A stretch of DNA of 64,000 bases, taken from NCBI RefSeq assembly GCF_053078305.1, contig NZ_CP166879.1; one strand, written 5' to 3'. Shown piece after piece: positions 32,701 to 35,700 of the stretch (position 1 is its first letter; each line of letters opens with the position of its first letter). The position numbers are program-made.

Positions 32701-35700
32701 TGAGTTAGGGATTTTCGACAAGAAGCAGATTTACTACCGCATGGACTTTAGCGGCTTCGTTATGTTGGTCATGGGATTTAACGGGGCAAAAGCTGATGCC
32801 GTTAAAGAAGCCTATATTAATGCCTTTAACTGGATGTCCGCTGAACTCCGTAAGTTCAGTGAAAGTTATGAAGCTGAACGCAACGCTGTAATGCTGGAAT
32901 ACATGAAAGAGAAAGATGTTGCCAGTATGTCAGGTCGTTTGCTCAATCGCTGGGGCAGGGTGAAGAAGCCTCAGTTGCTGGCAAGGCTGGACAGGCTGGA
33001 GCAACAGGGACAGATTGCGTTACCCGGATTTGATAAAGGCATTTCAGCCTGACATAACCATGCGCCGTATCGTCGCCGTATTCCCGCATAAACAGAGACC
33101 GCAGCCACCTTATCTGCGTGAGTGTGCGGGGGTAATCAAAAACGATGCACACCGGGTTTTCTCATTTTTCACGAGATGGGAGCGATTTCCCGCGAAGCCG
33201 CCTGTCCGGTGCGGTGGTGGAAGAAACCGGATAAAACAACCTCATTGTACAAATATCGATCAAGTATGGCGCTGCTGTGTGAATTCTGAAAAATCACAGC
33301 GGCCATTGTGCATCAGTTTTTAACAGAGGACGTCAGAAAGTGACATGGCAAAGCTGGACTGGAAAAAGCTGGAGCAGGCATTCCGACGCGAACATGCCGA
33401 AACGGGAATAACATTACTGGACTGGTGCCGGAAGAAAAAGATTAATTACAACACCGCCAGAACCCGTATAAAAATGGGCAAAATCGATCATGAAATTGAT
33501 CATAAAACCGATCATGAAATCGATCATGACATCTCAGATGAAGAACCCAGCAATGACGCGTGTTCCGACGATGAAAAATGCGCAAAAAACTCTGAAAAAA
33601 ACTGCGCAAATTCGGCAGAAACGAAACGGATTCGTGGTTCCCGACTTTTACCTCCTTCAAACGCTTTTTCTCAGCGAAACACCCACGCCGTAAGACACCG
33701 TGGATATGCGAAGTATCTTGAGGCAGATAACCTCATGGATGATGCGTCCGACATGGTGCTGTTCGATGAACTGGTGTTCACCCGGGCCCGCGCACTTTCA
33801 GTAACTAAGGCACTTAAAGGGATGTTCGCCGACCTGGAAAAGGCAACTGACGTGGAAACCCGCGTTGCTCTTTACGACAAAATACTCAAAGCTGAACAGG
33901 CCCTTGACCGGAATATTGCCCGTATCGAGTCAATTGAACGCTCATTGCTGACGCTGGACGTCCTGGCTGAGACAGCACCAAAACTTCGTGCTGACCGGGA
34001 AAGAATCAACGCCGCCAGAGATAAACTCAGAGCGGAAACCGATATTCTGACCAGCCAGCGCCGGGGCGTTGTTACGCCTGTCAGTGACATCGTGTCATCG
34101 CTGCATGAAATGAGTAATTCGGGGAGACTGGATGACATTCCGGAAGAATGAACCGCGATGTGATGAGCCGTCAGAAATGACCGAGGCTGAACAACGTCTG
34201 TTCATTATGACAAAACTGAGCAATCCCTGGTGGCGCCTCAATCATCTCTACAAAATACAGAACGAAAAAGGTGAACTGGTCACCTTCAGAATGCGACCGG
34301 CGCAACGTCAGTTGTTTCGTAACATGCATAATAAAAACATTATCCTGAAAGCGCGCCAGCTGGGATTTTCCACAGCCATTGATATTTATCTTCTCGACCA
34401 GGCATTATTCATTCCGCATCTCAAATGCGGGATCGTCGCTCAGGATAAACAGGCTGCCAGTGAAATTTTCCGCACAAAAATTGCTGTACCGTTTGATCAT
34501 CTCCCTGACTGGCTGAGAGCCTCATTCACCATCGTTGAACGTCGTAGCGGTGCCAGCGGTGGCTATATCCTGTTTGGTCACGGCTCGAGTATTCAGGTGG
34601 CAACCTCATTTCGCTCAGGTACGGTGCAGCGCCTGCATATCTCAGAGCACGGCAAAATTTGCGCGAAATATCCGGCTAAGGCGAAAGAGCTGCGAACCGG
34701 TACGCTTAATGCCGTCTCTGATGAATGCATTATTTTTGATGAATCCACGGCTGAAGGCGTGGGTGGTGATTTTTACGAGATGAGTAACCGTGCACAGGAG
34801 AGCACTGCATCAGGCTTATTGCTGACGGCACAGGATTATAAATTCCATTTTTACGCATGGTGGCAGGATCCTAAATACAGCGCCAGAGTGCCTGAAAGCG
34901 GGCTGAAGCTGTCACGGGAAAAAATGACGTATTTTTCTGCGGTTGAGAAGGCAATGAACATCACGCTTACCGATGAGCAGAAGCAGTGGTACATCAGTAA
35001 GGAAACTGAACAGCGTGAGGAAATGAAGCAGGAGTTTCCCTCAACGCCACAGGAGGCGTTTCTGACGTCCGGACGACGTGTGTTCAGTGCCGAAAGTACG
35101 TTGCAGGCAGAATCATTCTGTTCGCCACCGATGATTGTTTATGACATTGAACCTGTTACAGGAGCGAAGACTAAAGCTCAGTCTCTGCGTGAAGGAAATA
35201 AAAACGAGTTGCAGCGGACGCTGATGAATTATCTGCTGGTATGGGAACTGCCGGATCCGGATGAAGAGTATGTTTGTGGGGCAGATACTGCCGAAGGGCT
35301 GGAGCACGGAGACCGCTCATCGCTGGATGTTGTCAAACGCAGTAATGGCGAGCAGGTGGCTCACTGGTTCGGGCATCTCGATGCTGAACTTTTTGCTCAT
35401 CTCATTTCGCAGGTCTGTCGTATGTATAACAACGCGTTTGTGGGGCCGGAGCGTAATAATCACGGACATGCAGTTATCCTGAAACTCCGGGAACTCTATC
35501 CGACACGTTATATCTACAACGAACAGTATCTTGACCAGGCATATGACGACGATACGCCCCGCCTTGGCTGGCTGACAACCCGTCAGAGCAAACCTGTTCT
35601 GACCGAAGGAATGAAAACGCTCCTGAATAATGGAATATCAGGGATCCGCTGGTCAGGCACATTATCGGAAATGAACACCTACGTTTATGACGCGAAAGGC

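Follow-up and report, generated by a model that had tools for sequence, protein, structure and literature searches.

Background

In phage P22 (gene 3), SPP1 (pacR) and the staphylococcal phages, the signal recognised by the small terminase lies within or beside the terminase's own gene, and in phage lambda the R1–R3 elements of cosB are bound by the helix-turn-helix (HTH) of gpNu1, together with the integration host factor (IHF). In the annotated genome of phage P1, the gene pacA holds two clusters of hexamers, four at nt 194–233 of the gene, coding IIDH-SNDQ-HAGDH, and three at nt 324–352; the IHF site and the cuts occupy nt 256–285 between the two clusters, with the annotated cuts at nt 276–285. 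The P1 hexamers carry Dam sites, synonymous hexamer mutations lower P1 packaging, and it has been proposed that hemimethylated pac is bound and fully methylated pac is cut (PMC10028697). Here we describe a hexamer array in the small-terminase gene (terS) of a 933W-like prophage, located in a stretch of 64,000 nt from contig NZ_CP166879.1 (assembly GCF_053078305.1). This whole stretch is called the window below, and coordinates are window positions. An earlier note on this DNA had proposed that four evenly spaced GATC sites in terS form a Dam-regulated pac site of the P1 kind. The comparative analysis given here supports a hexamer recognition array, through its position, its conservation in three reading frames, its link to a recognition helix and the weak match of the small terminase's N-terminal domain to PacA; Dam regulation was left as an analogy with P1.

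The terminase of 933W-type phages has been classed as headful-packaging (PMC7317114, PMC6029569), and a pac site is therefore expected in such phages.

Results

The terS gene (33345..34151, + strand) encodes a protein of 268 amino acids (aa), which matched the phrog_370 profile over its full length (aa 1–268, E 1.4e-123), and its assignment is further backed by synteny and by an AlphaFold model. The four GATC sites start at 33486, 33498, 33510 and 33522, and the exact 12-bp spacing reported for them earlier was confirmed, as was their placement inside a small-terminase gene with large-terminase and portal genes as neighbours. Each site lies in a (T/C)GATCA hexamer preceded by AAA-n. The hexamers, which start at 33485, 33497, 33509 and 33521 (array 33485..33526), read CGATCA, TGATCA, CGATCA and CGATCA in order; the array is translated in frame within terS as IDHE-IDHK-TDHE-IDHD, just as the earlier note had it. 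At 33481–33533, Tandem Repeats Finder called 4.4 copies of a 12-bp period, with 82% matches.

The suggested check of GATC density against background also came out in favour of the array, which is the single place in the window with four or more GATC inside 40 bp (about 0.05 such clusters expected under a Poisson model), while GATC as a whole is under-represented (191 sites in the window vs 252 ± 13 in shuffles). The array stands out because GATC is scarce upstream of terS, with four sites in 28–32 kb (window 28001–32000); the next GATC downstream is at 34431. A CGATCA at 33257 was considered as part of the element and excluded; in the Salmonella relative L082 the nearest upstream GATC is about 530 bp away.

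Periodicity by itself is weak evidence, since tandem duplication of one 12-bp unit gives it automatically. Three GATCA at 12-bp spacing were found in at least 120 viral contigs, mostly in unrelated low-complexity or peptide repeats. It is the conservation across relatives, not the periodicity, that lifts the array above chance. As a separate observation, three GCGATCACAAA units at 12-bp spacing occur at about 7403–7462 of L165, a 70.7-kb viral contig, where there is no long open reading frame (ORF); this repeat may mark an origin or else a signal for packaging.

A protein search returned 379 TerS homologues, and DNA was fetched for 158 terS genes, of which 131 were distinct. The homologues are laid out as a conserved N-terminal segment, a variable low-complexity stretch of tetrapeptides and a conserved C-terminal region, and the tetrapeptides are IDHx in the window, SAQK or NAQK in other E. 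coli, SDQK or NDHx in some Salmonella and xAQS in Serratia- and Aeromonas-like relatives. Just after the N-terminal HTH, the relatives carry five to eight copies of a palindromic hexamer, usually TGCGCA. It is read as agT-GCG-CAG (S-A-Q), as tTG-CGC-AAa (L-R-K, also V-R-K) and as TGC-GCA (C-A), often all in one gene. Across the distinct genes, nt 100–330 of terS hold 660 copies of TGCGCA (27.2 per kb), against 25 copies elsewhere in the gene (0.38 per kb) and 87 in the flanks (0.28 per kb), which amounts to a frame-independent enrichment of about 70- to 100-fold. The three reading frames account for 500, 106 and 54 copies, and TGCGCA ranked first in an unbiased count of all hexamers in nt 100–330. 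As one motif is kept in three frames where it codes for unrelated residues, selection acts on the DNA and not on the protein. The composition of the linker, including its conserved Cys-Ala, would then follow from the DNA motif. No publication on TGCGCA arrays in phrog_370 small terminases was found in a literature search.

The window's GATCA and the relatives' TGCGCA hold the same register in the 12-bp unit and share the same flank (nAAAnYGATCA vs nAAAnTGCGCAA), and the cores of both types are palindromes of the form TG-NN-CA. E. coli TGCGCA arrays hold one in-register TGATCA unit (I-D-D-Q-K), which is a plausible intermediate between the two. In L082 and L083, two relatives from Salmonella with about 60% protein identity, five and three YGATCA respectively stand at matching gene positions (141, 153, 165 onward) and at 12-bp spacing; the residues encoded by these arrays vary (SDQK, SDHK, NDHE, SDQK, NDHN), whereas GATCA is invariant. 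Asp was encoded by GAT in 17/17 array codons, vs 39–62% GAT elsewhere in those genes, and the codon that follows always starts with CA. The entire hexamer is therefore conserved, and not just the Dam tetranucleotide.

The element reaches past the four GATC units, which are flanked by one degenerate and two intact TGCGCA. The degenerate hexamer, TGGGCA at 33475..33480, is one mismatch away from TGCGCA. Its place in the gene, nt 131, is held by a frame-1 TGCGCA (L/M-R-K) in most relatives from E. coli, Citrobacter and Salmonella. On the other side, a spacer of 52 bp (33527..33578), which codes for an acidic linker and which is by analogy with P1 a candidate region for the initiating cut, leads to a second cluster at 33579..33608. 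This cluster lies within a period-12 repeat at 33574–33610 and is made of two frame-0 TGCGCA (C-A), at 33579 and 33603, that enclose a degenerate unit. A frame-0 TGCGCA ends the array in nearly all relatives, and the protein P0019 has an additional KNCA unit. The window thus holds its hexamers in three frames as well, GATCA in frame 2, the degenerate TGGGCA in frame 1 and TGCGCA in frame 0.

The number of GATC units varies, as the earlier note had thought possible, and it shifts by whole 12-bp units with the frame preserved. Four copies are present in most genomes, three in the complete E. coli genome NZ_CP074900, five in L034 and in the protein cluster P0044 (57 members), and seven in P0002; alleles with one or two copies are possible, these having been seen in partial contigs only.

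The AlphaFold model of TerS, built from an alignment of 109 sequences, predicts a three-helix HTH in aa 1–45 (helices at aa 6–20, 24–31 and 35–41), a disordered linker at aa 46–109, which corresponds to the array-encoded residues, and, at aa 127–238, a long hairpin of helices, predicted to be of the type that forms small-terminase oligomers. No significant Pfam domain was detected in TerS, nothing relevant came from a profile search of PDB sequences, and a Foldseek search of the model against the PDB gave generic coiled-coil matches alone, driven by the C-terminal hairpin. TerS did match the PacA family phrog_1711, of which P1 PacA is a member (E 2.6e-5), and P1 PacA matched phrog_370 (E 1.9e-4), in both cases over the N-terminal ~100 aa only.

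The third helix of the HTH, the predicted recognition helix, for which the codons Y35-N-T-A-R-T40-R41 lie at 33447..33467 (+ strand), differs at residues 40 and 41 according to the class of hexamer. Helices of the type [ST]ARR[YH] go with four to eight TGCGCA (105 distinct genes, from Escherichia to Aeromonas-like), TART[RQ] with three to five YGATCA (24 distinct genes) and SAKRY with five TTCGCA (2 distinct genes), so that these classes fit 131/131 distinct genes with zero exceptions. Arginine usually prefers guanine. The exchange of CG for AT in the core, paired with Arg-to-Thr at helix position 40, would fit this preference.

The terS gene is mosaic. Compared with L039, an E. coli terS of the TGCGCA type, it is 99% identical over nt 451–804, 81% over nt 1–130 and 62% over nt 131–300, and these shifts place recombination breakpoints inside the gene. 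In the first 102 nt, identity is 96% between the Salmonella GATCA type and a Salmonella TGCGCA type, and 86% between the window and an E. coli TGCGCA type. The siblings diverge sharply in the patch of helix plus array alone (42–71% identity), whereas between the two GATCA types, of E. coli and of Salmonella, this patch is 79–83% identical. Helix and array therefore move jointly as a small recombining cassette. Convergent, independent origins of GATCA in E. coli and Salmonella were considered because the flanks group with the local TGCGCA siblings, and were rejected on the same figures (patch 79–83% vs 42–71%).

In two relatives, L286 (2001–2798) and L285 (2001–2834), an unrelated N-terminal domain of the DYCAGV type is joined to the same C-terminal region, and the hexamer array is absent. 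They hold short repeats instead, AAAAACGCAC three times and in more than one frame in L286, and AAATCCG three times with GGACGGACG twice in L285, which may be recognition sites of their own.

Three TGCGCA at 12-bp spacing were found at only 75 places in IMG/VR, 15 of them automatically flagged as directly following an ARRY-type HTH, with a few more recognised by eye. The TerS-like ORFs with TGCGCA arrays after such an HTH were of several different lengths. Apart from these, L336 and L382 share a 435-aa ORF with seven TGCGCA at about residue 186 (coding VAQKSAQGDAQKSAQ...CAQKCA); the protein is not small-terminase-like and may be another DNA-binding protein with its own sites in the gene.

Discussion

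We put at roughly two in three the probability that the GATC array is the main recognition block of the phage's pac, bound by its own TerS to start packaging, an estimate drawn from sequence comparison. TerS would oligomerise through its C-terminal helical hairpin, and each N-terminal HTH would grip one hexamer, reading AAA-n-YGATCA by the recognition helix at aa 35–41. The four GATCA sites would be occupied in this way, and probably the flanking TGGGCA and TGCGCA too. The complex of TerS and DNA would recruit the large terminase (TerL), which would cut first at a place close by, perhaps within the 52-bp spacer that separates the clusters, as in P1, and headful packaging would follow. The window would represent a specificity variant of a family-wide design in which TGCGCA is the ancestral and the commonest hexamer; in the variant, the central CG has become AT, and Thr40 and Arg41 replace Arg-Tyr/His in the recognition helix. 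The array itself, its conservation as DNA, its position equivalent to that of TGCGCA, its association with the type of HTH and the weak relation of the N-terminal domain to PacA are shown by the sequences; we infer the binding by TerS and the role in initiating packaging, and with them where the cut falls and in which direction packaging runs.

Several points weigh against this assignment. Aligned pairwise, TerS and PacA are only weakly similar (27% identity across 45 aa, E 0.009), and their C-terminal parts are unrelated. The IHF consensus WATCAANNNNTTR was absent from both strands of 33301–33800, including the region between the clusters, in a strict scan that leaves weaker sites possible. 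The hexamer spacing is not constant across the family (9–36 bp), and a strict helical-phase model therefore fails. The GATCA patch seems to have arisen once and then spread by recombination, which makes the independent switches few, and the co-variation of helix and array could come about through simple linkage, as they lie about 20 bp apart. Binding of TerS to the array could also serve some other role, for instance autoregulation. Finally, a literature search found no publication that locates the pac site or the virion ends of 933W-like or Shiga toxin (Stx) phages; the statements found were limited to headful packaging.

The alternative that survives best adds Dam gating in the strict sense of P1: TerS and TerL would bind hemimethylated hexamers and cut only fully methylated ones, so that methylation times packaging, and SeqA might compete. 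GATC stands at the centre of each of the four hexamers, and an E. coli or Salmonella host would methylate the GATCA sites, so that a protein binding the hexamer would meet N6-methyladenine. P1 behaves in this manner with the TGATCA/G hexamers in pacA (PMC10028697), and the N-terminal domain of TerS is related to that of PacA. The GATC version is moreover kept in two genetic backgrounds, both in Dam-positive hosts, and GATC is otherwise scarce near the gene (4 in 28–32 kb) and under-represented in the window. On the other hand, siblings whose terS is 99% identical over nt 451–804 use TGCGCA, which holds no Dam site, and methylation control is therefore not intrinsic or general in the family. 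The conserved unit is the six-base YGATCA and not GATC alone, which speaks for recognition of the hexamer by a protein. The window yielded no Dam-like gene, nor an ORF of the DPPY type of Dam, and the methyltransferase that the phage does encode resembles HsdM and occurs with both array types. For these reasons we regard Dam gating as doubtful. The phage methylase was also considered as the source of GATC methylation and was rejected on the same grounds: no DPPY Dam ORF was found, and the NPPY enzyme is HsdM-like and present on contigs of both the GATCA and the TGCGCA type.

A wider proposal is that the recognition helix and its own hexamer array form a portable cassette of about 100 bp, present in 933W-like and several other TerS families with an ARRY-type HTH, by which recombination re-targets packaging, and that the GATCA version, carried by Shiga-toxin phages and some Salmonella prophages and with a Dam site in the core of each binding site, is gated by, or insulated through, methylation and is orthogonal to co-resident TGCGCA-type prophages and satellites. 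In this full form the proposal is speculative, and we consider it unlikely to hold.

Much less probable, and in our opinion very unlikely, is selection on the protein only, in which a His/Asp-rich linker (IDHE repeated four times) is kept for metal binding or for linker length, with GATC as a by-product of GAT-CAT codons. Repeats of His and Asp can serve as metal binders; this one is in frame and would lie in the linker predicted to be disordered, and changes by whole 12-bp copies preserve the frame. The Salmonella relatives, however, exchange His for Gln (CAT/CAC to CAA) with GATCA unchanged, and every Asp codon of the arrays is GAT. The corresponding hexamer persists in three frames that code for unrelated residues, which is unexplained by protein constraint, and the linker segments SAQK, VRK and NCA are better explained as dictated by the DNA motif. 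Arrays also vanish when the N-terminal domain is replaced. Neutral replication slippage in a tolerant low-complexity linker, with no function, is likewise very unlikely: tandem 12-bp units with copy numbers of 3, 4, 5 and 7 are typical of it, and many unrelated viral ORFs reach three GATCA at 12-bp spacing in this way (at least 120 contigs), but it does not account for a position and core kept across about 40% protein divergence, for the frame-independent hexamer enrichment throughout the family, or for the loss of arrays along with the N-terminal domain.

If the array is the recognition block of pac, there are several consequences. 933W-like phages carry and spread Shiga toxin genes, and a pac site of about 130 bp would make it possible to predict and test which host or island DNA is mobilised by generalised or lateral transduction. 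Packageable vectors or decoys could be designed, and there would be a route to why similar prophages coexist in one Shiga toxin-producing E. coli (STEC) genome without cross-packaging. The family offers a natural series of specificity swaps for how small terminases read DNA, and with its GATC variant the question of whether Dam methylation times packaging could be put to a second system besides P1.

The surroundings of terS agree with a packaging module. The gene for TerL (34132..35838, + strand; phrog_2, phrog_38407), which is expected to cut and translocate DNA, overlaps the end of terS and is followed by the portal gene (35838..37982, + strand; phrog_156, E 3e-254), and the order terS-terL-portal is also found in the relatives L083, L285 and L286. 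The terS gene is 99% identical to the annotated terS of the Stx phages P13374, phi191, TL-2011c, Stx2 phage 86 and others. The 5' part of the gene matches a prophage of E. coli strain 2013C-3033 at 100% identity and occurs in 428 of the 5,426 complete genomes of E. coli. When simple peptide motifs were searched for, no Stx1 or Stx2 A- or B-subunit came up in any frame of the window, and ARAGORN found no tRNA genes there. Despite its Stx-phage terS, the prophage may be one of the group that lacks stx, or may carry other cargo at the stx position.

The methyltransferase mentioned above is an ORF of 966 aa at 23276–26176 (+ strand; phrog_13671, NPPY motif, weak HsdM similarity). The 5' part of this ORF contains a perfect (GACCAGC) repeat of 120.6 copies (23285–24128, 844 bp, 100% matches), giving PATSDQR repeats, and ORFs are open across it in two + frames and on the − strand. 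Since seven is not divisible by three, the gain or loss of a 7-bp unit would shift the frame, and a phase-variable or hypervariable methylase is possible. A perfect 24-bp tandem repeat of 2.8 copies was also observed at 26657–26723, in an ORF at 26251–27360 (phrog_12160, unknown function).

Comparison with known packaging systems

The nearest relatives of the window's element are the phrog_370 small terminases with TGCGCA arrays from E. coli, Citrobacter, Salmonella and Serratia- and Aeromonas-like relatives, which share with it the family, the architecture, the position of the array and the AAA flank; in E. coli siblings of this type, identity to the C-terminal domain of the window's TerS reaches 99%. 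They differ in the core, which is CG and not AT and therefore holds no Dam site, and in the helix, which is ARR(Y/H) and not ART(R/Q).

The pac sites of P22, SPP1 and staphylococcal phages are single segments or otherwise organised boxes and are not known to consist of four to eight phased hexamers, and their TerS are of other families. Lambda is alike in having repeats bound by the N-terminal HTHs of an oligomeric TerS and unlike in that cos is not a headful system and in that its 16-bp elements lie outside the gene and are IHF-dependent.

The comparison with P1 is the closest in layout and is limited by several differences. PacA (397 aa) and TerS (268 aa) are unrelated outside the N-terminal domain, and the large subunit is PacB in P1 and a 933W-type TerL in the window. 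P1 encodes its own Dam-type methylase, dmt, of which no equivalent was found in the window. The second cluster consists of GATC hexamers in P1 and of two TGCGCA in the window, which thus has one GATC cluster where a P1-type pac has two. Hexamers are spaced by 7, 12 and 15 bp and by 12 and 11 bp in the two P1 clusters, and by exactly 12 bp in the window.

A metagenomic PacA-like gene of about 420 aa on L189 (minus strand) stood out from the mostly unrelated viral contigs with three GATCA at 12-bp spacing, with six TGATCA at exactly 12-bp spacing just after the HTH (about 4378–4443), coding DQAG-DHNH-DHSG-DHAS-DHQN-DH, and two TGATCAG about 150 bp downstream, a more regular form of the P1-type layout.

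What the window and P1 have in common are direct repeats of a palindromic hexamer (YGATCA and TGATCA/G respectively) in the gene for the recognition subunit, placed after the codons of the N-terminal HTH and coding for xDH/xDQ. In both, two clusters are separated by a spacer, with 4 + 3 hexamers and about 90 bp in P1 and 4(+1) + 2 hexamers and 52 bp in the window. Read at the level of sequence, the window appears to present the P1 design in a different terminase family.

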